This document shows positions 17,448 to 60,177 of a stretch of 64,000 nucleotides of DNA, one piece after another; position 1 is the first letter of the stretch, and the number at the start of each line of letters is the position of its first letter. Under the pieces are notes generated by a model. It ran no database searches. It had not been told where the DNA came from and saw only the letters and a program-made list of their open reading frames with translations. The stretch comes from Candidatus Magasanikiibacteriota bacterium (GTDB lineage: Bacteria; Patescibacteriota; Patescibacteriia; Magasanikbacterales; UBA922). The translations under genes were made by a program, and so were the position numbers. The stretch lies in assembly GCA_003482855.1 (NCBI GenBank), contig DMXO01000005.1:10736-74735 (forward strand), in the 5' to 3' direction.

Positions 17448-17476
17448 TTTGACTAATTCGGGATAATGATATTTTT

Positions 17477-18649: not shown

Positions 18650-18653
18650 ATAT

Positions 18654-19895: not shown

Positions 19896-19898
19896 TAT

Positions 19899-20330: not shown

Positions 20331-20336
20331 TAATCT

Positions 20337-21023: not shown

Positions 21024-21110
21024 AGTATAGATTGTATATATATCTTGGGAGAGAAGTGCAGAGGTTATGTTGTTATCTTGAGATTTAAAGAAGTTTTAAA
21101 AATTTTTAAT

Positions 21111-21242
21111 TTGTCTAATTCATCTAATTTTCTAATAAAATTTCTAATAAAAAAATTCAAAATTAAATTTTGCACGATATTAGATAATTTGAGATTTTAT
21201 TAGAAATTAGACAATTAGGTGAATTAGAAATTTGTAGACAGT
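21111..21242. repeat. MITE-like imperfect palindrome (family B) inside the 272-bp gap between the VirB4 pieces
   Basis: Left arm TTGTCTAATTCATCTAATTTTCTAATAAAATTTCTAATAAAA and right arm TTTTATTAGAAATTAGACAATTAGGTGAATTAGAAATTTG are reverse complements. A related copy lies at 53149-53250. Confidence 0.55.
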
Positions 21243-21295
21243 TATACATATTTGTACCGTCAATTTAAAATATAAACATTTGGTACATGTAAATT

Positions 21296-23185: not shown

Positions 23186-23207
23186 ATTTACTACTAAATA
23201 ATATTAT

Positions 23208-23798: not shown

Positions 23799-23816
23799 TT
23801 TTTAAGTTGGAGGGAG

Positions 23817-24524
23817 ATGAACATAAAAGCAATATACAAACAGGGGATATGTATAACCAAAGATATTTTGTTTCCTGCATATTGTCTTGGGTGTGGTAAA
23901 GAGGGTATATTGGTGTGCAAAGATTGTTTGCAGACACTCGATTGTTCGGGTGTTTTTTGTTGTCCCGTGTGCCATGCTTCTTCCCTAAATGGTAAGGTCT
24001 GCGAGATATGTATGGCGCAGTCGTATTTGGACCGACATGTAGCAATTACTCAGTACAAAGAAAAAGGCCTTGTAGGAGATATGTTGCATATGTTCAAATA
24101 TTCATATGTAGAAGATATGGCACAAATACTGCGCGACATGGCAATCAAATTTTCACAGGTATATTCATTTGACGTGGATATTGTAGTTTGTGTCCCCTTG
24201 CATCGTAGGAGATTGGCACAACGCGGATTCAACCAAGCAGAAGAGATCGCGCGTATTAGTTCACAAGTTTTTGACATACCTTTTCACAGTATCTTGAGAC
24301 GGTGTCGTCACACTAGGCAGCAAGCAAAGCTGAATCGTGAAGGTAGATTAGTCAATCTTATTGACGCATTTGAAATTATAAAAAATGATTTTGATTTGAA
24401 TAATAAGAGGGTTTTGCTCGTAGATGATGTACTGACAACAGGATCAACTATGCAAGAATGTGCAAAGGTTTTGAAAGGGGCTGGCGCAAAAGAAGTGATA
24501 GGATTTAGTGTGGCGCGTGGATAA
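23817..24524 (+). CDS. comFC: ComF family protein (ComFC; phosphoribosyltransferase-like with an N-terminal Zn-ribbon)
   Basis: Four CxxC pairs in the N-terminal half. PRTase motif VLLVDDVLTTGSTM. Confidence 0.8.
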   Translation: MNIKAIYKQGICITKDILFPAYCLGCGKEGILVCKDCLQTLDCSGVFCCPVCHASSLNGKVCEICMAQSYLDRHVAITQYKEKGLVGDMLHMFKYSYVEDMAQILRDMAIKFSQVYSFDVDIVVCVPLHRRRLAQRGFNQAEEIARISSQVFDIPFHSILRRCRHTRQQAKLNREGRLVNLIDAFEIIKNDFDLNNKRVLLVDDVLTTGSTMQECAKVLKGAGAKEVIGFSVARG

Positions 24525-43900: not shown

Positions 43901-46900
43901 TCAGCTTCACCAAATATATATTTTTGGGGTCCAGAATCCACGAGTACTGTGATGAGTACATGGCTATATGAGTCTTTTGCAAGTGGTAGGATAGTGAATG
44001 AGGTAGCAGACAAACATATTACTACGCCTATCCCCGTGAATACGCTCAAAGGATATTCCATGGTGACTGGTCCTATACATGTCATAAGTACTACCGGCGA
44101 ATTAAGCAATAGTGTGCGTTATAATGTAACTGACTGTCGTGAACCAAATGCAGGGACTATCTCAGGTTTTCAATGTTGTACTGAAGGAAAAGAAGCTGGT
44201 AGATGGAAGCACGATTCATTTATTTGCGAAGGCGGTACGCGTGATGCTGGTTATGTATGGCGTATGACCACAGGCAAAATTCCCGATCAATTTTTTGTTG
44301 TTGAATCCTGTTCAGAAAGTGCTCCATCTCCAACGCCGTGGGAATCATGGCCACAAGGTAAAGTAGCTTGTCTCAATGCACAACTTCAGGCGCGATTTAG
44401 TTTGCCTGTAGATCCAGATACTGTGGGCATAGGAACCATTAATACGGCAAATGTCGGCGTATTTACTTGCGGTCAAGGACAGACAGCAGACTGTATTAGC
44501 GCACGACAAAATGTTTCACCCAATTTTACATCAGACATATGGGGTTCTGACATGTTTGTTTTGAGGCCTATTGCTGGGGATTTGCAGCCAAATACCTGGT
44601 ATCGTATAGCCTTTTCTCAAAATGTTGCATCGCTCCGCGAAGAGATGAGACTTGGAGTGAGTGTTACTACTACAGAAAATCTTTTGGCTACGCGTCCTTG
44701 TGATACCGATGGCGACGGAACGCTTGATGCGGCATATTGTTTTGATTTTAGGACAGGGGATGTGGATGAGATTTGTACACTGGTCGGAGCAGGGATGTAC
44801 AAAGATGAATATACGACCAAGATGCTTGGTGTTGTACAGGATTCACGATACGGCAAAATCTATCAACTCAATAAAATTTTTGATCCATACGATCCAGACA
44901 TTCATCCATTGTATTATTTTGTGTATGGTATTGCCAACCAAGAGTGTACGGTCATCAATGTAGACAACAAACCTTGGGATTGGGGCGATGATGAAAACAC
45001 ACCAGCAACAGGACACAAGTTTCCCGGCGATTCGTATGTGCATTCACGTGGTGTGGCCAAAGCATGGGAGCATTATCCAGAAGGGTATGACATTTTTGCG
45101 TATATAGATGAAAATCAAGACCTTGAACCTGAAGGGCCCACTGGCCCTACTGTCGTCGACGTGCTTCAACTTGCGGGTGTAGAGTACGCAAATGGATATG
45201 ACGACGGAAGAGCTTTATTGCCGGGTGATACTATAGACGATGTCAATTTAAATTTTTCTGAATCATTTAATATACGTTTTGATTTTTCTATCACTGATAT
45301 AGATGCGATGAATGCTAATTATCATTATTTGTTAGGTTCTGATGCTTTTTTCGTCTATTTAAATAGACAGGCAGAGGCATTTATTTCGTTATTTTATCTT
45401 ACCAGTGGTGGCAACAGTTTGTATCTTGATGATCCTGATGCGGTAGATATACTGGTAGAAGGACAAAGATATGTGTATGAGATAGATTTTAATAAACAGG
45501 ACATGCTCTTGAGACTCTTGCGGGATGGAAATGTCGTGAACTCAGTGCAGGTTACTGCTCAAATGGAGATGGCCCAAATTCCATCATCGGGTACAGTATG
45601 GGCCCATGATAATACTATCATTGACCTCTTGAAAATGTATGATTTGGAGATTACCAAAGGAGAAGAAACATCAGGACAGGGTCCAGATATATCGCGCATA
45701 ACAGCCACCAGTACTCTGTATATCGACCTTGGAGATCCAAAAGTTTTGAGTAAATGGCCACTTTGTATAGAAGCATGTATCAATGCTGAGATTGGTGCGC
45801 AGTTTGACCAGATAATGGATATGACGACATATGCAAATCATATACAGCTTTTTGAATGTAATAATGGAGAAACATGCACATCTTTGACAGAAATTCCTGT
45901 CACTATAGCAGACAGTAGTAGTGAGACTATTGTACGCGCATATGCTGATCCGCCAGGAGATGCATATTATCTTGAAAAAAATACATGGTATCTGGTCAAG
46001 ATATTGGATGGCATCCATGCCATTGGAAGTGCAAAGTATGGTGAAGATGGAACTATAATTCAAGGTGTTCAAGGAAAATCTGTTGTACCGACTCAATGGA
46101 AATTTAGAACGAAAAATTCAGAAGAGCCTTGTGTGATAGATAATGTACAGCTCTATCCTGATCCATTTACGGCGACATACATTGGTCAGAAACAACAATA
46201 CACTGCTTTGCCAAAAGGAGCTCCTGACGCATGTAGTCCTTATGGCCAATTCTTGAATCCATGGGATTATGGTTGGGAATGGGATGTGGCACATGATCAT
46301 ATCGCCACAACAACCAACTTTAGCATGTCAACGGTGTTCAACAAGGCATGTACTATTAATTGTTTGCCCGCAGGGAGTGACATTACGAAAGGAAGCTATA
46401 CAACATATCCTATTTGTGGTAATGGTGTTATTGATGTTGGTGAAGATTGTGACATCGCGAGCACTACGCCACGTACCAACCAAGGTGGCGCTCCTAGTAT
46501 TGCAGAAAACCCAGGAATTAGTTGTTCATATATATGTCTTCGCCCTGGCAATGGTAACAAAGGAGAACCGGGCACTGAAGGAGTCTGTGGAAATGGAATA
46601 GCCGATTATTATCAAGGTGAAGAATGTGATTTCAATGATCCTCAGCTTATAATTATCGATAGTGATGGTAATGAAAGAGATTACCGACCTTATTGTAGCG
46701 ACACATGTCAGTGGACTGGGTCAACACCAGAAAAAACCGGAGAACTTGCCAAGCCCGTGTGTGGAAGTAGTGGGGTTACACCAGGAGAGGATTGCGATAT
46801 ATCTGATGACACAACCAAGATAGGTTGTTCAAGTGTGTGTTTACATAGTGGTACGCCACTTATGCAACATTGGTGCGATACCGCTCCTGCATCTGCACAA

Positions 46901-49900
46901 AGTGCTTGCAAATATGCCACGAGTGTCTGCGGTAATGGAGAATTGGAACTGGGAGAAGAGTGTGAAGTGGGCATAAATGACGCAACAGTAAGTGAATGTA
47001 GTGATTGGTGTTTGCTCAAAAATGTATGTGATTCATCTCTCAAACAGTGTGATTATGAAGATGATGAAGGCTGTGCTCCAGATTGCACATGGCTTGGTTC
47101 GTCTATTCTTTATTCGCAGTCCTCACTCTGTTGGGATGGTGTTGCTGGTATTGGCGAATATGCGGGAAGTAATGCCTTTGCACCCTATCTTAGCTGTGAA
47201 GTAAGCCCAACGCAGGCACATAATCCACTCGGGGGCAATCCTGTCCAGCTTGTGACTGCCAAAGGAGAAGTGCCTCCTGAAGGTACGACTGATACAGGGT
47301 TGATAGACGAAGATGGTGATGACATTGCAGAATTACAGAGGACACAGATATTTGCAGATCCAACCACATATCGCAATCCGGATGGGAGTGTGAGCTCTAC
47401 TGTTGGCGATATTGAAGGTGCAGGCCAATATTCACTCCAATGTGGATACACTGAATATACCGAACAACAAATAGAAGAAGAGGAATATACAACTTTGAAT
47501 GATTGTCCTCAAAATACACAAAATCGATTTGGTGTTGCATCTAACTCATGTTGTTATATCCGTCCAGAACGTGTAGACCAATATCCCGCAGTAAATCAGG
47601 GTATTAGTGATAGTAATTCAGTATGTCGTAATACATATCTAGAAGTGGAGTTTAATCATGTAATGGATACTACGTCATTTACCAATAATACATACGTGGT
47701 ACAAGGGTATGAAGAAACACTATATCCAGACTTTAGTTGTGCAGAACATGGTGGAGAGGACATCACGCTTGCGATGAATACTATGCTTGGTATATCTCCT
47801 GATATCGCTCCACAAGGCTTTTGGAGCAAGGTATGGCATGGTATCAAGACATTTTTTGTAAAATTGTTTAGTAGAGATGCCTATGCAGTAGAACCAAATG
47901 CCGGCCTTTCAGGGACTATCACGTGGTGCAAGAGTGATATCAAATTAGATAACGCTGTCTTTCCTGTTCTTGACGAAGATGGAGAGACCACTGCGAGCAA
48001 AGCTGCATTATATTTGAATAAAGCACTAGACGAAAATGTGTATGTTGCTGTCATGTTGGAAGGTGGTGCAACCAAGATCAGAGACACAGAAGGTGTGGGT
48101 ATTCGCAAGCCATTTTCTGGTTATGAGGGTACAGACTATTGGATTTTTAGGACAGGAAGCGAAATATGCAAGATAGACCATATAAATGTAGAACCGTCTG
48201 GGTATTTGTTCAGGACTCCTGAGTCGCAAAGAATATTTGAGGCACAGGTTATTAGTAATACGGGCGGCCAGCTTATTGTACCTATTCCGGATGTGTATTA
48301 TTGGGAATGGGCATGGCATCCACAAAATAACCCCATATTCAATATTCCATCTGACAATCATCCTTATACCAATGTGACGACAAAAGGCGTAGAAGGTCAC
48401 CTTAATGCTATGGGTCAAGCAGAAGTAACGGTAGATATATTTGAAGAAAATAATCAGCTTGGTCAAAAGTTTAATGATTTGTTTGATCTCACCGCATTTT
48501 TCTGTGTGAATCCATGGCCACATATGGATACCTCCATACAAGGTACTACACAAGCAACTATTGATCCGGGGTTTTTTGAAGAAGAGCAGTATCATTTCTC
48601 TATGCTGTATTGTGCGGATGATGGCAATCCTCTCACTATAAGTGATGATCTCCCTTTGTTTGATAATATTTTGGCAGTAACCAATTTGGCAGATCTTGGA
48701 GGAGGTGGTGATGCTACTACTGACACATTATTGCGTTATTTACTATTCTCGAGTACGACCGAAGATGTCATCGGTATTCAGATTTTTGATAATCCTCCAA
48801 AGTCTGATGGTTCGCGACAAACACTTGATGAATGGTATACCAAACGATTTGAAAATATCGGTGCTATGCAACGTACGAGCGTAGCTGATTTTGATGCTTT
48901 GACTGATGGAAGTAATTTTTATATCAATGTATATGATTTTTCTCAAACTGCCCCAACAGACATAGGCATTGTTCATAATTATGTATATCTGTTTAGTGTG
49001 GATGTGAATGCGAACATACAGACCAAGAAAGCCTTTGAACAGATCATTGGTTTGCTTGAAGTAAATACCAATTTTACTGACTGGGGTAAATGTCTGGATA
49101 ATAATGTGCCTCATCATACCTACACGCAGATACCGGTTCGTACGCACGATGATGATATTGTCGAAGTAGATTGTGTCACTGATTTTGATTGTCTCAATAG
49201 TGAAGGCATTCCTTTGTCAGAGACAGGCTTGGAGACAAACGGCGTGTGTTCAAATCAAAAAACAAAATTTTTGCGTGATATAAAACGTTTGCAAGATTTG
49301 CGCACTGCTCAATTCAAAATAGACGATTATTTCAATAATGCATTTGGCACGCCAGATTTCGTCGGAGGCCTTGAGAGTGGATCGTTCATCCAGGGGTATA
49401 CCAATTCAAAATGGCAAACTTCATGGGGAAGGCTTAGTTCTTATATGGGAGGACTTCCTATAGATCCTATCAATGTATGGGTAGGATGTAGTGACCACGA
49501 TAGCGAGACATGTTGGAATTCAGTCAGTTCTACATTCAAATGTCCCCAAGCAGCACAAGTATATGAATACAAATATAATGATGCTGCAGAATCTTATTAT
49601 CTATTTGCACCGTTTGAATTTTTTAAATCGAGTGATCCTTTTGTAAGTCAGTTTATTGATACAAGTAATATTGTATTTGGTAGGAGTTGTTTGCCAGGGG
49701 ATGTGGCTGCAGCATACCAAGGAACTTGTGGAGATGGGATAGTGAATCCAGCGCTTGAAGAATGCGATCCACCAGAGAAAGAAAAGATAGTCCATCAGAC
49801 ATACAATGGGTCAGGCCAAATTATTTCATGTTCGGCAAATCAATATGCTATTGCGACTTGTAGTGATATTTGTGAATGGAATTATGGTGCCTGTACTCTT

Positions 49901-52588
49901 GGAGAAGTAGGGACATGTGGTGACGGTATCGTACAATGGCAACAGGGTGAGACCTGTGATCTTGGAGAAAACAATGGACAATACGGCAAATGCGATCCGC
50001 CGGGTGTTTCGAATGATTCAAGTACTCCTGTAAATGAATCTCTAGGTTGTCGCTCAGAGGGCAGGCTTGGAGGTTATTGTGGGGACAACAGTCTCAATCA
50101 ATCTGCCAATGGCGATCCGCTTGAGTTTTGCGATGAAATCAATGGCGTTTGTACATACATTACTGATGAAGGACAACTCATCAAACCAAAAGTTCAAATT
50201 GTATTGGATAGGTCGGGTTCAATGAAGTATTGTACTGATGGTACGCACAGTGGCAGCGAGGCGTGGTGTAATGGAATAGTGGATAATCCAAATAGCAGAT
50301 GGATATTGGCAAAGACAGGTCTGCAAAATATATTTGACGATTTTTCAAATTTTGCTCGATTTACGTTGCATGTTTTTTCTGCTGATTATTTGAGCACCAA
50401 AAAATGTGTGACGCAGATTGGTAGTGAGAATAATTTTATTACCCAGTTGGATGATATCGATCCATTGGGTGGCACGCCAACAAAAAATGCTTTGGAAGAT
50501 ATATATGATAAGAGGAATATTCTCTTTGGTACTGATCCTACAGTGCCTCGTACGGTTATTTTAGTGACAGATGGAGACCCGTCTGATGTTACGGGAGTTT
50601 GCACGGGTAATACTGTGGCGAATACAAAACAAGTGATTGAAGATTTAAGTAGAGAAGGTATTTCTACTTTTGTTGTCGGTTTTGGGGATGTAGGTGCAAC
50701 ACTCAGTAATAATCTCAATATATTTGCTGAAGCAGGAGGTACTGATAATCCTGGCAGTGAAGATAGATTTTATGAAGCAGATAGCCCAGATAGCCTTCTA
50801 AATGTGTTTGAACAAATTTTGGCCTGCCAGTCATACAGCAAGGTCAGGAGAGGTTCTTGCACATTTGATTGCCAGAATTTTGGTGGACATTGTGGCGATG
50901 GAGTTACTCAATGGGATTATGAAGAGTGTGATGATGGTAATACCAATAATATTGATGCGTGTCTGAGTAATTGTACGCTTAAATCAGGCGCAGTATGTGG
51001 AAATAACACAAAAGAGGGCACTGAACAATGTGATGATGGTAATAACACAGATGGAGATGGATGTACTGCAACCTGCGCTATAGAGATTACTGAGACTACT
51101 GATCCGTTTTGTGGTGACGGAGAAGAGAATCTGCCAGGAGAAAGATGCGATAAAGGTACAGAAAATGGAGTTGTCTGTATCCCAGAGTATAATGGCTCAT
51201 GTACGTATTGTACCGAGAGTTGTATTATAGAGACAGTGGATTCAGAAAAACGTTGTGGCAATGGGAAAGTTGACTATAACGGTTCCCAAGCTTTGGAAGC
51301 ATGTGATTATGTACTTGATGGTCAAGGTGCCCAATCCACCATATACATGGCTACTTCTACTTCAGCTGACGGGCAACTCTTGTGGACATGTAGTAATGAA
51401 TTGATTCTACAGCATTCTTCCGTAAATGAGATCCGTGGTTCTTTGTCATGCGATGATACATGTCAAACACTCAATACTGATAGATGTGTTCAGTGTGGGC
51501 TCAAAGAACTAGCCAAGGGTGGTGTGAAACCAAAGATGGCAGTACTTAATGTGATGACAGGGCAACCGGGGGATTCAGATTGGGCAAATGTCGCGGGTAA
51601 TTCTATAGACGTTGAGTCTATATGGGAAGGTATGTATGCACGTTATTATAGATTGTCTCAAAGTGGAAATACGTCTGACCCTGGTTATATGGGGAGTGGC
51701 GCTTTGAAAGATGTTACACCATATACAGACCAACATATGGTTGCCTCTGGTGATAATGGCACTCTAAGTCAGGATGCATGGGGTATTGAAACAAATAAGC
51801 AGTGTTCTGATTTTTACAGTATTTATTATAATAAGAATACTATTAAACAAAAATTTTTTGGTGGCAGTGCCACTCTTACAGACTACTTAGCGAGCGGTAG
51901 TTATTTCCCATATCCAGTTGATGGCGAGGCAGGAGTAGTGGAGCGCGATTTCGTCGTATCTCCCGCAGTCAAATCCGGAGACATACGCGTGGTCGTGCGT
52001 TGGGATAGAAGCAAGGATCCCAGTGTTGATTTTGCCGGAGCATTTTGGCGAGATGGAAATGGCTTCTCTTCGTATTCAAGTGCGTTGAGCAATTCCAAAT
52101 TATGCAGAGCTATAACTCTTGCTACAGACGGATATTGGAAACCGGATCCTGTTGATCCTGCTTGTGTTTCAAATATAGATAAAGCGTGGACACATTTTTA
52201 TGTCAAAGGTAATGACATAGGAGTACAGTCATATACATTTAGTCTTGATGGCAATACGAATCATAAGGCTATAGGTTTTGTCGTTATGTCGCCCAATGGT
52301 CCTATAGGTCAGTATCTTGATTATGACATATGGGTAGATGTATATTTACCGTATGCCAACCAAGTGCCCGCCTATTCTATATATAAGCCAGCAACATTTC
52401 ATATTAGCCAAGCAGAGTCATCAGACAACACAATGTCTTTGTATTGGCATGTGTTCAATATCGTAAAAGCAGGGAATATATATGTTCCAGTTGATGCATA
52501 TTCTTCAGACAATAGCGGTGGTACTATAGAAACAGATCTATGTCAGGTTCGTGAAAATATGCCGAGTACTACTAAATGTCAATTTTAG
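40913..52588 (+). CDS. Giant surface protein (3891 aa): VirB2/TrbC-pilin-like N-terminal module plus IPT/TIG-like, Ig-like, more than 10 Myxococcus-type Cys-rich repeats (CGDG...EECDDGN...DGC) and a vWA domain
   Basis: The N-terminal ~130 aa are paralogous to ORF 38680. IPT-like GASGNWVTIQGKGFG / GSYITIYGSNFG. Cys-rich repeats around 46.4-47.1 kb and 49.7-51.3 kb. vWA domain with a MIDAS motif (VLDRSGSM...T...VTDGDP) at ~50.2-50.7 kb. Confidence 0.7.
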   Translation: MMKSSRKTLLLGLLLSFVLGGFLFYVSPIFGQTTDTFGVAPIDQNLILGQSDIRVTVVKIINIALGLLGIVALGIVLYGGFVYMTAGGAEDKVATARKILVNGTIGLVIILSAFAITRFVLNKLIQATGANTTTENLDGSCSEPGTPYYEKYHGTVVCDAFCNLYQSQCCYAEHFVVKSITPSTPSAGDTTDMYNIIIRALFSNEVAGPANQVLQIFKKNGTQKENITDQFSFNYDGNGTIVEAILNGHVCDETLYPSEHCFDPGEYEVLVMNVKDKQGNELEAQTDCGTFPKDASFKTGERTRDQLIFMTPASAGGPYDVGQYTLLTALKEVDITHGIEQVWNPFDTQSGCVVTGNWRRITEVPGHEGDTGFVEIIDSERQLRQYPIYVVSANENANVTCSGSVIGVTQVRFETYTPTSSLVTGLIYVQGKTDDDEVDLQRVYQETDISGWKKVGGDGHTYTLGNYDDFVDKTPPVVDPLTANGTAGDGVRLVQGIEYPFVTTLRDTNGNAYGDLHIYKQGSASAILDEFIDGPRVLDGSSGPFVVNYGFRVPYSFEFNTNYVAEIRAYDIDSNETLEQIVFRVVPEYCDEPEHAEDPVCIGSNGTCKVQADCAAWLKCLDTDGSLCQTGDTLCECTSWPYIESVTPLNGASGNWVTIQGKGFGDEEGSLAFNYVDGNSDKDYEDAGDTRTSMNLAQCRGTDVWKDTWIIAEVPVQAGTDLPAPNISVRHTTTGYTDYTTDDFGPVVGTFTYNDTKRPGLCSVQVSEDTAFPLVDGTVTVFTASSTYGVPSTPIQAFGKGFGSYATNNVLDFGGVAASVGSGSWSEEIITSVVPFVSPGRIAVSVVASSGERSNPVPFDVYSLQDLNPPVITAIDPATTTPGSYITIYGSNFGNNQGIVKIGGLPSAALPEYCGDTWSDTQIVVKVPSTILDASGTSEVLPVVVERTDNGLKSNGSDKAGIIVGPPRPSICKLDPETGPAPLSGSNRLTLKGENFSASPNIYFWGPESTSTVMSTWLYESFASGRIVNEVADKHITTPIPVNTLKGYSMVTGPIHVISTTGELSNSVRYNVTDCREPNAGTISGFQCCTEGKEAGRWKHDSFICEGGTRDAGYVWRMTTGKIPDQFFVVESCSESAPSPTPWESWPQGKVACLNAQLQARFSLPVDPDTVGIGTINTANVGVFTCGQGQTADCISARQNVSPNFTSDIWGSDMFVLRPIAGDLQPNTWYRIAFSQNVASLREEMRLGVSVTTTENLLATRPCDTDGDGTLDAAYCFDFRTGDVDEICTLVGAGMYKDEYTTKMLGVVQDSRYGKIYQLNKIFDPYDPDIHPLYYFVYGIANQECTVINVDNKPWDWGDDENTPATGHKFPGDSYVHSRGVAKAWEHYPEGYDIFAYIDENQDLEPEGPTGPTVVDVLQLAGVEYANGYDDGRALLPGDTIDDVNLNFSESFNIRFDFSITDIDAMNANYHYLLGSDAFFVYLNRQAEAFISLFYLTSGGNSLYLDDPDAVDILVEGQRYVYEIDFNKQDMLLRLLRDGNVVNSVQVTAQMEMAQIPSSGTVWAHDNTIIDLLKMYDLEITKGEETSGQGPDISRITATSTLYIDLGDPKVLSKWPLCIEACINAEIGAQFDQIMDMTTYANHIQLFECNNGETCTSLTEIPVTIADSSSETIVRAYADPPGDAYYLEKNTWYLVKILDGIHAIGSAKYGEDGTIIQGVQGKSVVPTQWKFRTKNSEEPCVIDNVQLYPDPFTATYIGQKQQYTALPKGAPDACSPYGQFLNPWDYGWEWDVAHDHIATTTNFSMSTVFNKACTINCLPAGSDITKGSYTTYPICGNGVIDVGEDCDIASTTPRTNQGGAPSIAENPGISCSYICLRPGNGNKGEPGTEGVCGNGIADYYQGEECDFNDPQLIIIDSDGNERDYRPYCSDTCQWTGSTPEKTGELAKPVCGSSGVTPGEDCDISDDTTKIGCSSVCLHSGTPLMQHWCDTAPASAQSACKYATSVCGNGELELGEECEVGINDATVSECSDWCLLKNVCDSSLKQCDYEDDEGCAPDCTWLGSSILYSQSSLCWDGVAGIGEYAGSNAFAPYLSCEVSPTQAHNPLGGNPVQLVTAKGEVPPEGTTDTGLIDEDGDDIAELQRTQIFADPTTYRNPDGSVSSTVGDIEGAGQYSLQCGYTEYTEQQIEEEEYTTLNDCPQNTQNRFGVASNSCCYIRPERVDQYPAVNQGISDSNSVCRNTYLEVEFNHVMDTTSFTNNTYVVQGYEETLYPDFSCAEHGGEDITLAMNTMLGISPDIAPQGFWSKVWHGIKTFFVKLFSRDAYAVEPNAGLSGTITWCKSDIKLDNAVFPVLDEDGETTASKAALYLNKALDENVYVAVMLEGGATKIRDTEGVGIRKPFSGYEGTDYWIFRTGSEICKIDHINVEPSGYLFRTPESQRIFEAQVISNTGGQLIVPIPDVYYWEWAWHPQNNPIFNIPSDNHPYTNVTTKGVEGHLNAMGQAEVTVDIFEENNQLGQKFNDLFDLTAFFCVNPWPHMDTSIQGTTQATIDPGFFEEEQYHFSMLYCADDGNPLTISDDLPLFDNILAVTNLADLGGGGDATTDTLLRYLLFSSTTEDVIGIQIFDNPPKSDGSRQTLDEWYTKRFENIGAMQRTSVADFDALTDGSNFYINVYDFSQTAPTDIGIVHNYVYLFSVDVNANIQTKKAFEQIIGLLEVNTNFTDWGKCLDNNVPHHTYTQIPVRTHDDDIVEVDCVTDFDCLNSEGIPLSETGLETNGVCSNQKTKFLRDIKRLQDLRTAQFKIDDYFNNAFGTPDFVGGLESGSFIQGYTNSKWQTSWGRLSSYMGGLPIDPINVWVGCSDHDSETCWNSVSSTFKCPQAAQVYEYKYNDAAESYYLFAPFEFFKSSDPFVSQFIDTSNIVFGRSCLPGDVAAAYQGTCGDGIVNPALEECDPPEKEKIVHQTYNGSGQIISCSANQYAIATCSDICEWNYGACTLGEVGTCGDGIVQWQQGETCDLGENNGQYGKCDPPGVSNDSSTPVNESLGCRSEGRLGGYCGDNSLNQSANGDPLEFCDEINGVCTYITDEGQLIKPKVQIVLDRSGSMKYCTDGTHSGSEAWCNGIVDNPNSRWILAKTGLQNIFDDFSNFARFTLHVFSADYLSTKKCVTQIGSENNFITQLDDIDPLGGTPTKNALEDIYDKRNILFGTDPTVPRTVILVTDGDPSDVTGVCTGNTVANTKQVIEDLSREGISTFVVGFGDVGATLSNNLNIFAEAGGTDNPGSEDRFYEADSPDSLLNVFEQILACQSYSKVRRGSCTFDCQNFGGHCGDGVTQWDYEECDDGNTNNIDACLSNCTLKSGAVCGNNTKEGTEQCDDGNNTDGDGCTATCAIEITETTDPFCGDGEENLPGERCDKGTENGVVCIPEYNGSCTYCTESCIIETVDSEKRCGNGKVDYNGSQALEACDYVLDGQGAQSTIYMATSTSADGQLLWTCSNELILQHSSVNEIRGSLSCDDTCQTLNTDRCVQCGLKELAKGGVKPKMAVLNVMTGQPGDSDWANVAGNSIDVESIWEGMYARYYRLSQSGNTSDPGYMGSGALKDVTPYTDQHMVASGDNGTLSQDAWGIETNKQCSDFYSIYYNKNTIKQKFFGGSATLTDYLASGSYFPYPVDGEAGVVERDFVVSPAVKSGDIRVVVRWDRSKDPSVDFAGAFWRDGNGFSSYSSALSNSKLCRAITLATDGYWKPDPVDPACVSNIDKAWTHFYVKGNDIGVQSYTFSLDGNTNHKAIGFVVMSPNGPIGQYLDYDIWVDVYLPYANQVPAYSIYKPATFHISQAESSDNTMSLYWHVFNIVKAGNIYVPVDAYSSDNSGGTIETDLCQVRENMPSTTKCQF

Positions 52589-52607
52589 AAAAGGGTAAAT
52601 AATTTTT

Positions 52608-53069
52608 ATGCACACGACAAGAAATATTTTATTCATAGTTGCTCTTATTTTTCTTTTGGGATTGGGTGTGTTTTACATATTCTTTTTTATGAAGAAACCC
52701 ATGCCTATACAGCAAACAAATAATGATATACAACAAGTGGATACTACAAATAAGATACAACAGCAGATACAAGAAACAACAGGAATGGACGTATCAATAA
52801 ATCTAGATGATTTCAAACCCTCATCTCCAAAAGAAATGCCTGAGTGGTATGCCACAGACAAAGATGAAGATGGTCTAACCGATGAAGAAGAACAAAGACT
52901 TGGTACAAATGTATGGGAACCAGATAGTGATGGGGATGGATTGCCCGATAAGGTAGAAATAGAGAAATACAAGACAGATCCTATGAAACCAGATAGTGAT
53001 GGAGATACATACTGGGATGGATTGGAAATTACCAATGGATATAATCCGTTGGGAGAAGGGAAGATATAA
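52608..53069 (+). CDS. Small TM-anchored protein (153 aa) with a C-terminal triple dockerin/EF-hand-like Ca-binding repeat
   Basis: N-terminal TM; Q/N-rich linker. C-terminus DKDEDGLTDEEE...DSDGDGLPDKVE...DSDGDTYWDGLEITNGYNPLGEGK, with Dx(D/N)xDGxxDxxE loops. Confidence 0.55.
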   Translation: MHTTRNILFIVALIFLLGLGVFYIFFFMKKPMPIQQTNNDIQQVDTTNKIQQQIQETTGMDVSINLDDFKPSSPKEMPEWYATDKDEDGLTDEEEQRLGTNVWEPDSDGDGLPDKVEIEKYKTDPMKPDSDGDTYWDGLEITNGYNPLGEGKI

Positions 53070-53148
53070 TAGTCTTCCCAATGCCGTGATTGTAAGATAC
53101 CATGTAAGAATTCCAAGCGCTGTCTGTACTTTTATGGGATAGTAAATT

Positions 53149-53250
53149 CATCTAATTCACCTAATTTTCAATTCACCTAATAAAAATTTAAAATCAAAAT
53201 GCTAAAAAATGTATATTTTTTGAATTTTATTAGATGAGTTAGGTGAATTG
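53149..53250. repeat. MITE-like imperfect palindrome (family B copy)
   Basis: Arms CATCTAATTCACCTAATTTTCAATTCACCTAATAAAAA and TTTTTGAATTTTATTAGATGAGTTAGGTGAATTG. Shares words with the element at 21111-21242. Confidence 0.5.
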
Positions 53251-53344
53251 CAATTTAGCGAATTTATTAACTGTAAGAGCATAAACAACGCTCATAATTC
53301 TAACATTTTTATCCACGTGATTAATTATTATCCTATATTATTCT

Positions 53345-54331
53345 ATGTTTGATGATCAACAACCACAAAATTTGGGCAATGTACCAGGTAATCTCCCTAC
53401 GGGAGAGCCTGAAGATGTGTTTGCAAATATCGAGCTAGCATCATCTCGTCTAGCAGATGTACCATCCGACCCTGTTGCAGAGGAGCCCCTTGTCCCCACA
53501 AGTGCTCTTGGCGCGGGCATTTTGCGTCCCAAAGCAGTGGCTACCCCTACACCATTACCAGATACGTATGGCCCTGTAGAACCCCCTATGCCACCTATGA
53601 GACCGTCAACCGTTCCGGTAACGTCTCCAAATACAATCAATCAAACAGACGGTGGTGTGTTAGGGTCAAATAATGACATGGCGCCTGGCATGTTTGATAA
53701 TGTTGCTCCTTCTATGACTGTGCCACCACCAGGTATGACACCAAATGGTGGTAATCAAAACCAGATGTATGACCTCAAAGAACCTATAGGGAATAAGAAA
53801 ACTATTTTGTGGATTATTATTGTAGTTATTGTTGTGGTTTTGGGAGCTGGGAGCGTATGGATTTATACATCTTTTATGAGAGACAAAGATACATCTACCA
53901 ATGACTTTGATGTACCAACCGTGTCAGAGGGTTCTGTAGATGTAGAAAACACAGTCAATACATCGAATTCTTCTCTTGATACACAAAATGGTTCAACACA
54001 AACATCTGGACAAGATACGAATACTACGGGTAATAATACTACCGTAGATTTACAAGATAGAATTCTGTTTGGCGAGCCTATAGATACGGATGGTGATGGA
54101 CTTGATGATGTGCGTGAAGCTGATCTCGACACTGATCCGCTCAATTGGGATACTGACGGAGATGAGCTTGGCGATGGGGACGAGGTCACGATATGGAAGA
54201 CAGACCCGTTGGATTCTGATACAGATGGTGATACGTATTTGGACGGGGTGGAAATCAAAAATGGGTATAGTCCCACAGGCTCAGGCAAGTTGTTTGAACC
54301 ACCTACAAGCACTGACGGCATATCTCAATAA
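53345..54331 (+). CDS. TM-anchored protein (328 aa): Pro-rich N-terminal region, TM, S/T/N-rich linker, C-terminal triple dockerin-like repeat
   Basis: C-terminus DTDGDGLDDVRE...DTDGDELGDGDE...DSDTDGDTYLDGVEIKNGYSPTGSGK is paralogous to ORFs 52608 and 54334. Confidence 0.55.
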   Translation: MFDDQQPQNLGNVPGNLPTGEPEDVFANIELASSRLADVPSDPVAEEPLVPTSALGAGILRPKAVATPTPLPDTYGPVEPPMPPMRPSTVPVTSPNTINQTDGGVLGSNNDMAPGMFDNVAPSMTVPPPGMTPNGGNQNQMYDLKEPIGNKKTILWIIIVVIVVVLGAGSVWIYTSFMRDKDTSTNDFDVPTVSEGSVDVENTVNTSNSSLDTQNGSTQTSGQDTNTTGNNTTVDLQDRILFGEPIDTDGDGLDDVREADLDTDPLNWDTDGDELGDGDEVTIWKTDPLDSDTDGDTYLDGVEIKNGYSPTGSGKLFEPPTSTDGISQ

Positions 54332-54333
54332 AT

Positions 54334-55530
54334 ATGTTTTGGAGTAAACACGCGAAAAAAAATAAAGTGTCTTCTTCTGAAGGGGAATTATCCGCCGTTA
54401 TTTTGACTATTCCTGATATTTTTTATGGTGGGCAAGATCCTACTATTTATCATACTCAAGAAAAAGTAGGCCTGCATAGCAATAATGACATGTCTACATC
54501 TGCACAGGTAGACACAAAAAAGATTATACCACATAAGACTTCTATTTTTTCAGGAAAAAAAGTTTGGATTATTGGATCTATCTTTTTGGTTGTGGCCGTA
54601 GGTATTATTTCTTGGTATTATATTGCACAGTATCGCGGTGCTCAACAAATGCTCGCGCAGAAAAATCAGACCAACACTACTAGACAAACACAGCAAACGT
54701 CGACGACCACCACACGTGAAATTATACCGACTGCGACATCGACGGTGACTGTCACGAGTTCAAATGAATTGCCTCCTGCAACGAGTACACCATCACTTGT
54801 GTCTGCTTTTTTTGAGTTTCCTACCTCAGTATCAATAGATACCGCAGATTTGGATAGTGATAGTCTTACTGATATTGAAGAAGAACTTTTTGGCATAGAT
54901 AGTGGTACGTGGGATACTGATCAAGATGGGTATTATGATGGACAAGAAATATTTAATCTTTACAATCCTAAAGGATTTGCTCCCGTGAAGTTGATTGACT
55001 CAGGACTCGTACGAGAGTATATCAATCCTTTGGGGTATCGTATTTATTATCCCTTTTTTTGGCAGGAAGGCGATGTCGATCCACAGGAGAGACAAGTTTT
55101 ATTTAGTGCTATTTCAGGTGATTATATAGAAGTAAGGGTCTCACAAAAGGAACAGAATCAGTCTTTTGTCCAATGGTTTGGGAGAAATGCTGAGGGGCAA
55201 CGTTATGCTGATTTGGTTGAATTTGAAAATAGGTTCAAACAAAAGGGATATCGTAGGAAGGACAGTCTCGTTGCTTATTTTGATAGTGATACCTATGTGT
55301 ATATATGTATATATCACCCAAAGGATAGAGGACCTATTGCTTTTCGTCATGTGATGCAGATGATGTATCAGAGTTTTCGTATTCAAAAGACTGATATAGA
55401 TATACCAGATCAGGCGCCGTTGCCTGATGCCAATGCGTCAAGCACCACACGTTCGACAAGTACCATTTTTTCTACTGACACGGCTACAAACACACAGCCG
55501 GCTATAGGTACAACGTCGACAAATATATAA
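54334..55530 (+). CDS. TM-anchored protein (398 aa) with a degenerate dockerin-like repeat followed by a ~200-aa globular C-terminal domain
   Basis: TM at residues ~75-97; T/Q-rich linker; DLDSDSLTDIEE...DTDQDGYYDGQEIFNLYNPKG matches the motif of the two upstream paralogs. Confidence 0.5.
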   Translation: MFWSKHAKKNKVSSSEGELSAVILTIPDIFYGGQDPTIYHTQEKVGLHSNNDMSTSAQVDTKKIIPHKTSIFSGKKVWIIGSIFLVVAVGIISWYYIAQYRGAQQMLAQKNQTNTTRQTQQTSTTTTREIIPTATSTVTVTSSNELPPATSTPSLVSAFFEFPTSVSIDTADLDSDSLTDIEEELFGIDSGTWDTDQDGYYDGQEIFNLYNPKGFAPVKLIDSGLVREYINPLGYRIYYPFFWQEGDVDPQERQVLFSAISGDYIEVRVSQKEQNQSFVQWFGRNAEGQRYADLVEFENRFKQKGYRRKDSLVAYFDSDTYVYICIYHPKDRGPIAFRHVMQMMYQSFRIQKTDIDIPDQAPLPDANASSTTRSTSTIFSTDTATNTQPAIGTTSTNI

Positions 55531-55535
55531 ATAAT

Positions 55536-55988
55536 GTGGAGGAGAATGTTTTGTTTATGGAATGTCTTGTTTTTTCTTCTGTACAACGTGTTGAATTTTC
55601 CCGCAAGAAAATTGAACACGTTGTTTTATTTGTACTGAAACAAGTAAAGATAAATGGCTCGGTGAGTGTTCATCTCATAGGTGACAAAAAGATGAGATCA
55701 CTCAATGCTACATACCGAGGAAAAGACAGTACTACTGATGTTTTGTCTTTTGCCATGGGAGATAATAAAGAGCGTATATATGGTGGAGAAGACGAGCTGG
55801 GAGATATATTTATCTCCATTCCACAGATTAGACGCCAGGCATCTACATATAGAGTTCCTTATGCACAAGAATTTACACGTATGCTCGTGCACGGAGTTTT
55901 GCACATTGTAGGGTTTGATCACATACATGAAACAGACGCACAAAAAATGTTTTCTTTGCAAGAACATCTTATAACAGAGTGCATATGA
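55536..55988 (+). CDS. ybeY: rRNA maturation endoribonuclease YbeY
   Basis: Zn-binding motif HGVLHIVGFDH; 150 aa. The true start may be the internal Met at ~55557. Confidence 0.85.
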   Translation: MEENVLFMECLVFSSVQRVEFSRKKIEHVVLFVLKQVKINGSVSVHLIGDKKMRSLNATYRGKDSTTDVLSFAMGDNKERIYGGEDELGDIFISIPQIRRQASTYRVPYAQEFTRMLVHGVLHIVGFDHIHETDAQKMFSLQEHLITECI

Positions 55989-56359
55989 ATATCAAGAGAT
56001 TATTTCAAAGTTTTGTAAATGCATGGCGAGGGATCGTATTTACCTTTCGTCATGAACAAAATTTTAGAGTACAGCTTTTATTTTCTGTTATTGTTGTGAT
56101 AGGCATGTTTTTATTTCATCTGCGTTCGTATGAACGTATCGTTGTGCTTCTTTTGATAATACTGGTCATAGTCCTCGAATTGGTGAATACGACTATAGAA
56201 AAATTTCTTGATTTGATGAAGCCACGATTGCATACCCATGTGGAAGTGATAAAGGACGTGATGGCTGCTGCCGTACTTATTGCCTCGGTTGGTGCTTTGA
56301 TTATTGGATGTATTATTTTTATACCACATATTATAGTTGAGTTGTCAGTATTTTCATGA
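55979..56359 (+). CDS. dgkA: Diacylglycerol/undecaprenol kinase family (DgkA)
   Basis: 126 aa, 3 TM; conserved ELVNTTIE motif; overlaps the ybeY stop by 10 nt; conserved ybeY-dgkA adjacency. Confidence 0.8.
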   Translation: MHMNIKRLFQSFVNAWRGIVFTFRHEQNFRVQLLFSVIVVIGMFLFHLRSYERIVVLLLIILVIVLELVNTTIEKFLDLMKPRLHTHVEVIKDVMAAAVLIASVGALIIGCIIFIPHIIVELSVFS

Positions 56360-56392
56360 TATACTGCTCATAGCATATATAGTATTTATAGT

Positions 56393-57652
56393 ATGGCGCG
56401 TAATAGGACATATACCGAAATAGTAACAGGCCTTGATGTAGGATCAAGCAGCGTTCGTGTTGCCGTAGGTCAGCTTGTGGTGTCAAAAGATCATCCACAA
56501 CAACTTCAAATTGTTAGTTCGATCGAGGTGCCTTCTGAAGGTATACAAAAGGGCCAAATCACGAGTATTGAAGATACTGTTTCTGCTGTTTCCAATGCTT
56601 TGGAGCAGGCCGAAAAAATGGTGGGAGTTCCTATAGAACATGTCTGGGTTGGTGTTTCTGGTAACCAGATTATTTCACAAGAGAGTAAAGGAGTCATCGC
56701 AATATCTCGTACAGATGGGGAAGTTGCTGAAGAGGATATTGACCGGGCAGTAGATGCTGCAAAAGCGATATCTACGCCTCTTAATTATGAAATTTTACAT
56801 GTATTACCTCGCAGTTTTAGTGTGGATGGACAAACAGGAATCAAAGACCCGGTAGGGATGACAGGCATACGACTTGAAGTGGATACGAAGATAATTCATA
56901 GTGTAACATCTCATATAAAGAATTTGAGTAAAGTAGTATATCGCGCTGGAGTGGATATAGATGATTTTGTGTTGTCTATATTGGCTGCAGGAGAGGTAGT
57001 GATCAACAGCCGACAAAAAGAGCTGGGATGCGTAGTGGTAAATATTGGCGGTCCTACGACGAGCATGGTTGTATATGAAGATGGAGATGTTCTTCATACA
57101 TCAGTCATACCTATTGGTTCGTCTCATATTACCAATGATTTGGCTCTGGGGCTCAAGACATCTATTGATGTGGCTGAGAGAGTCAAAAAGGAATATGGTG
57201 AATGTGTGAGTAGGGGCATCAATAAAAAAGAAATTGTTGATTTGAAGGATGTTGGTGCAGATAAATCAGAAATAGTGACCAGATATTATATTGCTCAAAT
57301 TATTGAAGCACGCGTGTCTGAAATTCTTGAAAAAGTTGATGAAGAACTTGCGTCTATTGAACGTAGCAATATGTTGCCCGCAGGAGCTGTTTTCATAGGA
57401 GGCGGTTCAAAAGTAAATGGCATTATAGATATAGCTAAGCAAGTGCTTTCGTTGCCTGCCCAGCTTGGGTATCCGCTCGGTGTAGATAGTATATCAGACA
57501 AGATAAGTGATATCTCATTTGCGCCAGCTATAGGATTGGTAAAGTGGGGGAGCGCGTTAACACACGATGGAAAGCGTAAACCATTTATGTCGAATTTTAA
57601 GGGGAAGATGAGTGATAGAGTTAAAGGGATTTTCAAGAGTCTCATACCATAG
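56393..57652 (+). CDS. ftsA: Cell division protein FtsA
   Basis: Actin-like ATPase of 419 aa (LDVGSSSVRVAVG...; GGGS motif) directly upstream of ftsZ. Confidence 0.9.
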   Translation: MARNRTYTEIVTGLDVGSSSVRVAVGQLVVSKDHPQQLQIVSSIEVPSEGIQKGQITSIEDTVSAVSNALEQAEKMVGVPIEHVWVGVSGNQIISQESKGVIAISRTDGEVAEEDIDRAVDAAKAISTPLNYEILHVLPRSFSVDGQTGIKDPVGMTGIRLEVDTKIIHSVTSHIKNLSKVVYRAGVDIDDFVLSILAAGEVVINSRQKELGCVVVNIGGPTTSMVVYEDGDVLHTSVIPIGSSHITNDLALGLKTSIDVAERVKKEYGECVSRGINKKEIVDLKDVGADKSEIVTRYYIAQIIEARVSEILEKVDEELASIERSNMLPAGAVFIGGGSKVNGIIDIAKQVLSLPAQLGYPLGVDSISDKISDISFAPAIGLVKWGSALTHDGKRKPFMSNFKGKMSDRVKGIFKSLIP

Positions 57653-57869
57653 AATATTGGTTATATTGTTTTGTAGCGTATATATACGTCTAAAAGACGT
57701 TTTTTTGTTATTTATTATGGTACACACTTTATAGTGCTTGACACTCTTGGCCAAAACTTATAAACTATGAGTATTGAATACATATATTTTCCAAATACTA
57801 TTTATTTGAATACAGATTGTGTTCAAATAAATATCTAGGGAGTTGACTTTACACTTAGAATAAAAACGT

Positions 57870-59108
57870 ATGCCACAAATAAAACCAGATGTCGAAACAT
57901 TCGCTAAGATAAAAGTTGTAGGTGTGGGAGGATCAGGAGGTTCAGCAGTCAATAGGATGGTCGAAAGTCGCATACGCGGTGTTGATTTTTTGGCATTGAA
58001 TACAGACGTACAGGCCCTTCACCACAATAGTGCCCAAAAGAAATTGCATATTGGTAAGACAGTCACCCGTGGGCTTGGGGCCGGTATGGATCCAGACAAA
58101 GGCAAACGAAGCGCGGAAGAAGCACAAAATGAAATTAGAGAAGCACTCAAAGATACTGACATGATTTTTATTACATGTGGACTTGGTGGTGGCACAGGAT
58201 CAGGAGCGGCCCCTGTCGTGGCAGAGATAGCTCGCGATATGGGTATACTCACGGTAGCTGTAGTGACGAAGCCATTTTCTTTTGAAGGTCCACAACGAAA
58301 AATGATCGCTGATAGGGCATATGAAGAATTAGTGAGAAGTGTAGACACTATCATTACTATACCCAATGATCGAATTCTTCAAATTATTGACAAGAAGACA
58401 TCACTCCTTGATGCATTCAAGATTGTGGATGATGTTCTGCGTCAAGGTGTGCAGGGTATTTCTGAGTTGATCACGGTTCCAGGTCTTATCAATGTCGATT
58501 TTGCTGATGTAAAGACTATTATGAGTGATACAGGATCTGCGCTTATGGGTATAGGTGTTGGCACAGGAGACAATCGTGCAGTCGAAGCAGCCAAAGCTGC
58601 TATATCAAGTCCGCTTTTGGAAATATCTATTGACGGAGCGCGCGGTATTTTATTCACTATTACTGGTGGCACTAGTCTTGGTATGCAAGAAGTCGCAGAA
58701 GCAGCAAAAGTTATCACAAGTTCAGCTGATGACAATGTACAGGTAATCTTTGGTGCTGTAGTGGATGAACATATGGGCGAAGATGTGAGGGTTACTGTTG
58801 TTGCAACTGGATTTGAAGATCGTGAGCGAGAAAGTGTTGTCAATGCTGATTCAAAGAATGCTGGGCTTGATGTATTTACTGCAAAACGCCCTAAATTTAA
58901 ATCAAATTTATTTACCAAACGTCATGAGATGCCTGAGGAAGAAAAAGAAGAAGCGCCACAGCCACCGGTTGCTACATTTACGAGAAAATCAGTTGGTAAT
59001 GATATGTTTCAATCTACTATTCCACAGACGCCAAAGATTCCATCTGCGTCAGAAGAAGATGACGACTTAGAAATTCCAGCATTTATCCGTAAGAAAATGG
59101 GAATGTAA
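57870..59108 (+). CDS. ftsZ: Cell division protein FtsZ
   Basis: Tubulin signature GGGTGSGAAPVVAEIA; T7 loop; promoter TTGACA/TAAACT at 57738-57766; terminator hairpin at 59131-59163. Confidence 0.97.
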   Translation: MPQIKPDVETFAKIKVVGVGGSGGSAVNRMVESRIRGVDFLALNTDVQALHHNSAQKKLHIGKTVTRGLGAGMDPDKGKRSAEEAQNEIREALKDTDMIFITCGLGGGTGSGAAPVVAEIARDMGILTVAVVTKPFSFEGPQRKMIADRAYEELVRSVDTIITIPNDRILQIIDKKTSLLDAFKIVDDVLRQGVQGISELITVPGLINVDFADVKTIMSDTGSALMGIGVGTGDNRAVEAAKAAISSPLLEISIDGARGILFTITGGTSLGMQEVAEAAKVITSSADDNVQVIFGAVVDEHMGEDVRVTVVATGFEDRERESVVNADSKNAGLDVFTAKRPKFKSNLFTKRHEMPEEEKEEAPQPPVATFTRKSVGNDMFQSTIPQTPKIPSASEEDDDLEIPAFIRKKMGM

Positions 59109-59706: not shown

Positions 59707-60177
59707 ATGTCTCAGCATACACATAAGAAGCATGAGTCTCCAGAGGAGGCAATGCCCCAAAAGACAGTAGGTGATGAAGAAAAACACGGCATAGATATCC
59801 AACAAAATTCTGCCACGATAAACGATTCTTCACAGACACACGGAGAATTAAAGGATTTGATTGAAAAAAATATCAAATGGTCGCAGGTTATCTATAACCA
59901 AAATAAGAAAATAAAGCATCGTCTCACGCTCATGGTTGTTGGAAGCTATCTACGTCTCGTCCTTATTCTGGCCCCTATTATTCTTGGTATTATTTATCTG
60001 CCCCCGCTTCTCAATAATTTATGGAATCAATATAGTGATTCGCTTGGTTTGCAAGGAGTCTCTTTTTCAGAAATATCAGATTTGTTGAAAACACGCACAG
60101 GTGGCACGCAAATACAAATTGATGCTAACCAGTTGCAAGAATTATTGAAACAAAACACTCCAAATAATAGCAGGTAA
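59707..60177 (+). CDS. Hypothetical protein with one TM segment (156 aa)
   Basis: ORF; central hydrophobic helix; no family recognised. Confidence 0.45.
   Translation: MSQHTHKKHESPEEAMPQKTVGDEEKHGIDIQQNSATINDSSQTHGELKDLIEKNIKWSQVIYNQNKKIKHRLTLMVVGSYLRLVLILAPIILGIIYLPPLLNNLWNQYSDSLGLQGVSFSEISDLLKTRTGGTQIQIDANQLQELLKQNTPNNSR

Follow-up and report, generated by a model that had tools for sequence, protein, structure and literature searches.

The object of the present analysis is a 64,000-nucleotide stretch of DNA from Candidatus Magasanikiibacteriota (contig DMXO01000005.1 of assembly GCA_003482855.1, positions 10,736-74,735 of the forward strand), referred to as the window in the following. 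Directly downstream of a gene for a giant surface protein lie three small open reading frames (ORFs) on the plus strand, here called A, B and C (Table 1). Their coordinates and their position behind the giant gene, from which A is separated by 19 nt, confirm a preliminary description of the same stretch. B and C are spaced by 2 nt, and 5 nt lie between C and ybeY. In each of the three proteins there is a single strongly hydrophobic segment, together with acidic loops of 12 residues that follow the form DxDxDGxxDxxE (DxDxDxxxDxxE in general). Proteins identical to A and C have been deposited from a metagenome-assembled genome (MAG) of Candidatus Magasanikbacteria as hypothetical DCS29_03235 and DCS29_03245, respectively. 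The repeat family is already catalogued; the annotation of A, B and C does not go beyond 'hypothetical'.

A profile search of species-representative genomes with the alignment of C retrieved 78 loci, almost all titled Magasanikbacteria, Magasanikiibacteriota or Patescibacteria; two of the 78 are more distant (L081, titled Uhrbacteria, and L082). Locus counts were taken over a set of 86 loci, among them the window itself and some duplicates. Syntenic loci supplied the orthologues of A and B, and the alignments comprised 68 and 81 sequences for A, 67 for B and 54 for C. About 30 MAGs among L016-L082 that bear the gene block are titled 'uncultured Gammaproteobacteria bacterium', a title that conflicts with their gene content and with a ybeY/ftsA/ftsZ synteny identical to that of Magasanikbacteria; the source assemblies were probably mislabelled.

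Table 1. Genes and features of the three-gene locus and its neighbourhood (positions in the window)
Feature	Position	Strand	Description
Protein A	52608..53069	+	153 aa; signal-anchor helix, Q/N/T-rich linker, three-unit module (very probably TSP3_bac) at aa 77-153
Three calcium-type loops of A	52857..53027	+	aa 84-95, 106-117, 129-140 (nt 52857-52892, 52923-52958, 52992-53027)
Protein B	53345..54331	+	328 aa; Pro-rich N-terminus (predicted cytoplasmic), transmembrane segment, T/N/S-rich linker, three-loop module at aa 240-321
Conserved short motifs of B (predicted cytoplasmic)	53345..53533	+	MFDD..G..P.NLP.GEPEDIF at aa 1-26; SAL.AG.L.PK at aa 53-63
Three calcium-type loops of B	54083..54253	+	aa 247-258, 269-280, 292-303
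Protein C	54334..55530	+	398 aa; N-terminus (predicted cytoplasmic), transmembrane segment, T/P/E-rich linker, two loops, modelled PsbP-like domain, low-complexity tail
Giant surface protein	40913..52588	+	3891 aa, 130 Cys; T4SS_pilin, TIG, Big_5, DUF4215 Cys-rich repeats, VWA (Pfam)
Second T4SS_pilin-anchored surface protein	38680..40905	+	741 aa; T4SS_pilin and Big_5; directly upstream of the giant gene
ybeY, dgkA, ftsA, ftsZ	55536..59108	+	identified by Pfam; conserved downstream of C; nrdR beyond

A repeated acidic loop module in all three proteins

The loops of A (DKDEDGLTDEEE at aa 84, DSDGDGLPDKVE at aa 106 and DSDGDTYWDGLE at aa 129) carry acidic residues that are invariant or at least 90% conserved in both alignments of this family, and the loop acids of B and C are conserved to the same degree in theirs. 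Loop number and spacing are typical of each protein: three loops at intervals of 22/23 aa in A (56/66 sequences) and B (66/67), and two loops 22 aa apart in C (54/54). The DxDxDxxxDxxE pattern does not occur in the 16,592 residues encoded by the other plus-strand genes of the window, and in 5000 shuffles of A, B or C that preserved composition the observed number of loops was never reached. Spacing, invariant acids and shuffles thus uphold the earlier view that these are acidic calcium-type loops with conserved spacing and not low-complexity runs of acidic residues. In the AlphaFold2 (AF2) model of A, built on 81 sequences, the predicted local distance difference test score (pLDDT) is 95-98 over aa 80-150, and each loop is followed by one short helix (aa 92-98, 114-121 and 137-142) of 6-8 residues and then by the 'TDP' turn of TSP3_bac. 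Real low-complexity linkers are found in all three proteins and could suggest that the acidic repeats, too, are unstructured and functionless sequence. Against residues that are invariant and spacing that is fixed over 54-81 sequences, a Pfam E-value of 3e-12, the high pLDDT and the outcome of the shuffles, this explanation retains hardly any probability.

The three modules were scanned with Pfam down to E <= 10. Dockerin, EF-hand and thrombospondin type-3 models had been proposed for comparison in the preliminary description, and it is the last of these, in its bacterial form PF18884 (TSP3_bac, curated gathering cut-off 25 bits), that matches. A scores 42.5 bits over its full length and 46.6 bits, with three matching stretches, as an isolated module; the corresponding values for B are 25.0 bits and 28.8 bits, the latter again with three stretches. 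In NCBIfam, the Myxococcus TSP3 proteins CglD and MtsD were matched weakly and locally. The eukaryotic thrombospondin type 3 repeat (PF02412) reached only E 2.2 (8.5 bits), and its cysteine pairs are absent: A and B contain no cysteine and C contains one. The EF-hand comparison produced a single match, of B to EF-hand_6 (E 0.85, 10 bits), so that only the 12-residue loop consensus is shared with that family. PF03495, the calcium domain of anthrax protective antigen (PA) and related binary toxins, was matched weakly (E 0.016).

Comparison with solved structures gave a similar picture. The best sequence matches in the PDB were Bap of Staphylococcus aureus (7c7u/7c7r, E 4e-4) and, after it, the calcium loop of anthrax PA. 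A Foldseek search of the PDB with the AF2 model of the A module placed Bap first (root-mean-square deviation of 0.7 A across 43 residues, at 42% identity), ahead of iota-toxin Ib and PA, the toxin structures occupying ranks 4-10. Together, the Pfam and solved-structure matches identify the loops as calcium-type loops of the general DxDxDG kind, here in the bacterial TSP3 form, and the loops of A, B and C are very probably TSP3_bac-type calcium modules.

The preliminary description had likened the loops to dockerins that dock, in the manner of a cellulosome, on cohesin-like domains of the giant proteins. Type I dockerins and the modules of A and B do have in common repeated units of about 22 residues, each an EF-hand-type calcium loop of 12 residues with a helix, at the C-terminus of the protein; both suggest a docking role, and the genes adjoin a giant multidomain surface protein. 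The likeness is superficial, however. A and B have three units instead of two, and the helices of dockerins are longer than the short ones modelled in A, which end in the TSP3_bac turn. None of the three modules had Dockerin_1 (PF00404) among its Pfam matches at E <= 10, the dockerin fold of two F-hand loop-helix repeats was not recovered, and neither a dockerin nor a thrombospondin was returned by the Foldseek search of the PDB with the A module despite its confident model. No cohesin family is present among the Pfam matches (E <= 0.01) of the 3891-aa and 741-aa neighbours in the window. A, B, C and the giant protein are not a dockerin-cohesin system, and docking of the cellulosome type is highly improbable.

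Known PF18884 proteins, such as Myxococcus CglD, MtsC and MtsD or OmpA-like proteins with TSP3 repeats, share with A, B and C the DxDxDGxxDxxE loops, the (G)TDP turn and the period of about 22 aa, and likewise are extracytoplasmic and associated with adhesion proteins. They differ in carrying 10-40 repeats within large lipoproteins or outer membrane proteins, whereas A, B and C have two or three repeats on small single-pass proteins. Unlike these examples, A, B and C themselves lack VWA, EGF and OmpA domains and form a fixed trio next to a VirB2-anchored giant protein. The Myxococcus co-adhesin CglD is a published analogue: its COMP-like DxDxDG and VWA domains support adhesion that depends on Ca2+, and contact of the calcium domain with a VWA adhesin has been suggested (bioRxiv 10.1101/2023.10.19.562135).

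Region B of S. aureus Bap (7C7U, 7C7R), the best solved match, contains the same loop-helix-loop unit in a surface protein. The Bap motif is embedded in a large sortase-anchored protein, unlike the modules studied here. Calcium controls an aggregation switch in Bap; nothing suggests amyloid behaviour for A, B or C. Anthrax PA and the B components of clostridial binary toxins (PF03495) have loops of the same type (DxDxDGxPDxxE), which the modules match only weakly and locally. In the toxins this domain belongs to a pore-forming protein; A, B and C have no other toxin domains.

Three different membrane proteins share the module

In the preliminary description, the three genes were regarded as tandem paralogs of one build, with an N-terminal transmembrane anchor and three C-terminal loops each. 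Paralogy holds for the module of about 65 aa, in which aa 167-234 of C align by hhalign to loops 2-3 of A and B (probability 98.9%, E 2e-17). Outside this module the resemblance ends: sequence comparison assigns A, B and C to three separate families of orthologues, each conserved across genomes, with only the module in common. The N-terminal anchor is real in A (aa 7-28), which is a small protein with such an anchor in every orthologue, but the transmembrane segment is internal in B (aa 154-177, preceded by a Pro-rich region of about 150 aa) and in C (aa 77-100). Likewise, three C-terminal loops are present in A and B, and not in C, where two loops (aa 172-183 and 194-205) precede a globular domain. 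Lysine and arginine residues are more frequent before than after the transmembrane segment (2.2 versus 1.2 in B, 3.9 versus 1.9 in C), which favours an orientation of B and C with the N-terminus inside and the C-terminus outside. The median linker between the membrane segment and the first loop measures 41 aa in A, 69 aa in B and 74 aa in C.

The predicted cytoplasmic part of B contains two short motifs (Table 1) whose conserved columns are at least 90% conserved in the alignment of 67 orthologues; the module at the other end of the protein terminates in GKLFEPPT. An EPEDIF-like regular expression matched 60 ORFs directly upstream of C and one ORF elsewhere in the 86 loci, across which the motifs are specific to the B family. 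A homology search with the N-terminal region for other architectures returned two matches only. The NLP of the first motif is invariant and presumably resembles the PilN peptide that is bound by PilM. C has a motif of its own in the corresponding region, IPDxFYGGxDPxIY (aa 26-39, window 54409-54450). In the alignment of 54 C sequences, little or no variation is seen in this motif, in both loops, in the transmembrane segment (ISWYYI) and at many positions of the C-terminal domain. Judged from their conservation, the predicted cytoplasmic peptides of B and C imply a cytoplasmic binding partner.

C is known from more than 256 full-length homologues of 40-65% identity, none of which has a Pfam domain on record; one of them (P0215) bears the NCBI name 'PsbP-related protein'. 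The AF2 model of C exceeds a pLDDT of 90 for about aa 165-365 and includes a confidently modelled globular domain at about aa 215-350, C-terminal to the loops. Foldseek matches of this domain in the PDB were BT_1490 (3hlz, E 2e-4), Tsi3 (3wa5, 5e-4), PsbP (1v2b, 6e-4) and SciW, with a probability of 1.0, E-values of 2e-4 to 8e-4 and target-normalised TM-scores of 0.47-0.55 (0.55 for PsbP 1v2b). On the model, the domain has a PsbP/Mog1/DUF1795-like fold, a resemblance at the level of the fold only; the Pfam PsbP family (PF01789, cut-off 23.5) gave E 0.22 and 12 bits for C. The solved relatives Tsi3, SciW/EagR and PsbP function by binding other proteins. C differs from them by the fusion to TSP3 loops and a membrane anchor.

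Conservation of the gene block

Practically all related loci of Magasanikbacteria and Uhrbacteria share the order giant T4SS_pilin protein, A, B, C, ybeY, dgkA, ftsA, ftsZ. Two or more ORFs with TSP3 loops lie directly upstream of C in 67 of the 74 loci with enough upstream sequence, one in the other 7 and zero in none. An ORF of at least 900 aa is found just upstream in all 58 loci that have more than 6 kb of upstream sequence. Sampled matches to the A and B families come from this locus type without exception (6/6), five of the six having a T4SS_pilin giant upstream. The distant loci L081 and L082 retain the whole block and both cytoplasmic motifs.

On the other side of C, a ybeY motif comes next in 78/85 loci and ftsZ follows within 6 kb in 72/74. 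It is therefore conceivable that the three proteins are accessories of the divisome or cytoskeleton, with the N-terminal peptides of B and C binding FtsA or another actin- or tubulin-like protein and the calcium modules acting on the septal wall. FtsN binds FtsA and PilN binds PilM, and the short conserved cytoplasmic motifs of B and C, with the invariant NLP of B, would fit this paradigm. A Kuenenbacteria contig (L085) is informative here. Downstream of genes for large surface proteins it encodes A-like (151 aa), B-like (186 aa) and C-like (489 aa) proteins, of which the last has 28% identity across loops and PsbP-like domain. In place of ybeY and ftsAZ, the next genes are radical-SAM and mreC. 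The mreC neighbour is another morphogenesis gene, which would suit a division role, yet the three genes have parted from ftsAZ and not from the large surface-protein genes, and the B motif of this contig is without the NLP. Moreover, ybeY and dgkA always stand between C and ftsA, and no similarity to FtsQ, FtsL, FtsB or FtsN emerged from Pfam or NCBIfam scans. A role in division is thus quite unlikely. The arrangement in L085 is instead the main argument that A, B and C move together with the genes of large surface proteins and not with division genes.

A promoter and terminator scan gave counts not above the shuffled expectation, and Rfam had no match in 52400-55700. The A-B spacer is 275 nt long in the window, compared with the usual 10-45 nt in related loci. 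It contains an imperfect palindrome of about 130 nt (window 53140-53270) made up of AATTCACCTAA motifs in three direct and two to three inverted copies, with an RNA fold energy of -38.5 kcal/mol (z -5.55). Another copy, of about 76% identity, is located at window 21100-21240, just upstream of a gene for a VirB4-like ATPase. The palindrome is missing from the A-B spacers of the related loci compared, and the A-B copy has no Rfam match. The long spacer was considered as a conserved regulatory region and rejected on the grounds of the usual spacer length and of the genome-specific palindrome. The palindrome may be a genome-specific repeat, similar to miniature inverted-repeat transposable elements or repetitive extragenic palindromes, or a shared operator.

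The giant surface protein

The window encodes two neighbouring surface proteins with a T4SS_pilin domain (Table 1), which were scanned with Pfam at E <= 0.01. The N-terminal T4SS_pilin membrane domain of the giant protein (VirB2-like, PF18895; aa 56-120) scores 27.4 bits, above the cut-off of 26.6 bits, and the same domain is on record for orthologous giants. The domain of the 741-aa protein scores 40.8 bits. VirB2-like pilin genes have been described in the Candidate Phyla Radiation (CPR), and adhesins such as PrgB were not detected in that CPR dataset (Microb Genom 2025, PMC12102498). Full-text literature searches turned up no account of this set of three genes or of a connection between it and T4SS_pilin giant proteins. 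What is new here is the presence of minimal TSP3 modules on a fixed trio of single-pass proteins beside a VirB2-anchored giant.

Segments aa 1600-3100 and aa 3300-3891 of the giant are found in 40-60 of 65 orthologous giants. Between them lies a VWA insert (aa 3096-3300, window 50198-50812) with an apparently intact DxSxS motif resembling MIDAS, the metal ion-dependent adhesion site: DRSGS ... GGTPT ... VTDGDPSD. Docking of the TSP3 modules on this site, by analogy with COMP and integrin, was considered and rejected as a general mechanism: only about 12 of the 65 orthologous giants contain the VWA segment, whereas the three genes are always there. A contact between TSP3 knob and MIDAS cannot be general if the insert is not conserved.

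In several related genomes, extra genes for surface proteins of 400-1200 aa are inserted between the giant and the three genes (L086 7662-8906, L087 7495-8979, L084 6090-8963, L083 5061-8576). The encoded proteins have Big_7, Laminin_G_3/fn3 or DUF5667/DUF4215 domains. In those genomes the block evidently tolerates additions of surface proteins after the giant.

Functional interpretation

A, B and C are three different bitopic membrane proteins of the Magasanikbacteria (Patescibacteria/CPR) cell, with the N-terminus predicted inside and the C-terminus outside. Each carries a cysteine-free TSP3_bac module on the outer side of the membrane, borne by a flexible linker 40-75 residues long. In the module, every 12-residue DxDxDGxxDxxE loop leads into a short helix and then into a turn of the TDP type. 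Once Ca2+ is bound, two or three units should lock into a small, rigid and acidic knob, comparable to the Bap motif and to the calcium domain of anthrax PA and iota-toxin Ib. Such acidic knobs may mediate protein-protein contacts, to which C would add its PsbP-like, putatively protein-binding domain directly after the loops. Jointly, the three proteins would form a calcium-dependent, membrane-proximal accessory or retention set that holds or organises the giant protein at the envelope, and the cytoplasmic peptides of B and C would connect the set to a cytoplasmic partner. The earlier suggestion that the three proteins anchor or cross-link the giant is thus a plausible one. The argument that A, B and C function together with the giant surface protein derives from gene order, including the short gaps between the genes, and the chances for and against it are evenly balanced. 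A specific mechanism of retention for the giant protein is more doubtful and can be put forward only tentatively.

Several observations weigh against a joint function with the giant. No recognisable partner domain for the modules was found in the giant protein, the sole attractive candidate being the VWA insert with its limited distribution. Binding of Ca2+ by the modules is suggested by homology to the calcium sites of Bap and PA, and the AF2 models are ion-free. C alone gives no Pfam TSP3 match at threshold and, taken with its hhalign alignment to the A/B profile, counts as a divergent TSP3_bac member by profile-profile evidence only. In other proteins, TSP3_bac modules are fused to OmpA, L,D-transpeptidase and thioredoxin domains (among the weaker matches), which fits a generic role in the envelope. 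Finally, gene order is preserved throughout the lineage all the way from the giant gene to nrdR, and almost every gene lies on the same strand, so that the adjacency of the giant gene to A, B and C may be inherited rather than functional.

The last two points lead to an alternative in which A, B and C are generic wall-spanning proteins of the monoderm CPR envelope that act as calcium-binding spacers or buffers, much as the TSP3 segments of OmpA-like proteins might, have no specific relation to the giant and owe their synteny to inheritance. The fusions with envelope domains are in agreement with this alternative, the T/P/E-rich linkers of 40-75 aa would suit the spanning of a wall, and the long collinearity means that conserved order in this region is not specific to the three genes. 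Contrary to it, the three genes in L085 remain beside large surface genes after loss of the ybeY-ftsAZ context, and all six sampled members of the small TSP3 families come from a single locus type. The conserved cytoplasmic peptides of B and C and the protein-binding-type domain of C speak for specific partners rather than for bulk calcium binding. A generic envelope function is therefore considered unlikely.

A more far-reaching version of the proposed coupling to the giant protein sees the three-gene set and the VirB2-anchored giant as an integrin-like trans-envelope adhesion unit of ABY1-class CPR. On the outer face of the cell, the calcium-loaded TSP3 knobs and the PsbP-like domain of C would take hold of the giant adhesin at its conserved base. 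Inside, NLPxGEPEDIF of B and IPDxFYGGxDPxIY of C would bind a cytoplasmic filament or ATPase, for which the neighbouring FtsA would be the obvious candidate by analogy with the PilN-PilM and FtsN-FtsA pairs. In this manner, host attachment could be coupled mechanically or spatially to the division machinery. As a whole, such a unit is very unlikely.

Other features of the window

A CPR type IV secretion cluster is probably encoded at window 12684-24524, about 15 kb upstream of the two T4SS_pilin surface proteins. Its ORF at 21296-23185 matches P-loop_TraG, DUF87 and AAA_10 (VirB4-like), and the scanned flankers of this ORF, a 1587-aa protein (12684-17447) and the ORFs 17477-18649 and 18585-19895, gave no Pfam match. 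Two further proteins are secreted or belong to the envelope, namely a CAP/SCP-domain protein of 415 aa (5695-6942) and a VanW and PG_binding_4 protein of 673 aa (25542-27563). GC skew is positive over the entire window. A 764-aa ORF at 60536-62830 is among the very few long ORFs on the minus strand; neither this ORF nor a 156-aa ORF at 59707-60177 has a Pfam match.

Implications

Bacteria of the CPR (Patescibacteria) are thought to live attached to a host, and the molecules that retain their large surface proteins are almost unknown. The observation of dockerin-like loops has developed into the definition of a lineage-wide block composed of a giant VirB2-anchored protein and three small membrane proteins with calcium-type loops. 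This block offers invariant residues that can be mutated, cytoplasmic peptides that can serve as baits and a prediction of calcium dependence. If the coupling between A, B, C and the giant is not real, the three proteins are merely further members of the catalogued bacterial TSP3 repeat family. If it is true, the block would represent the core attachment apparatus of Magasanikbacteria, Uhrbacteria and their relatives and would explain why attachment might depend on calcium.

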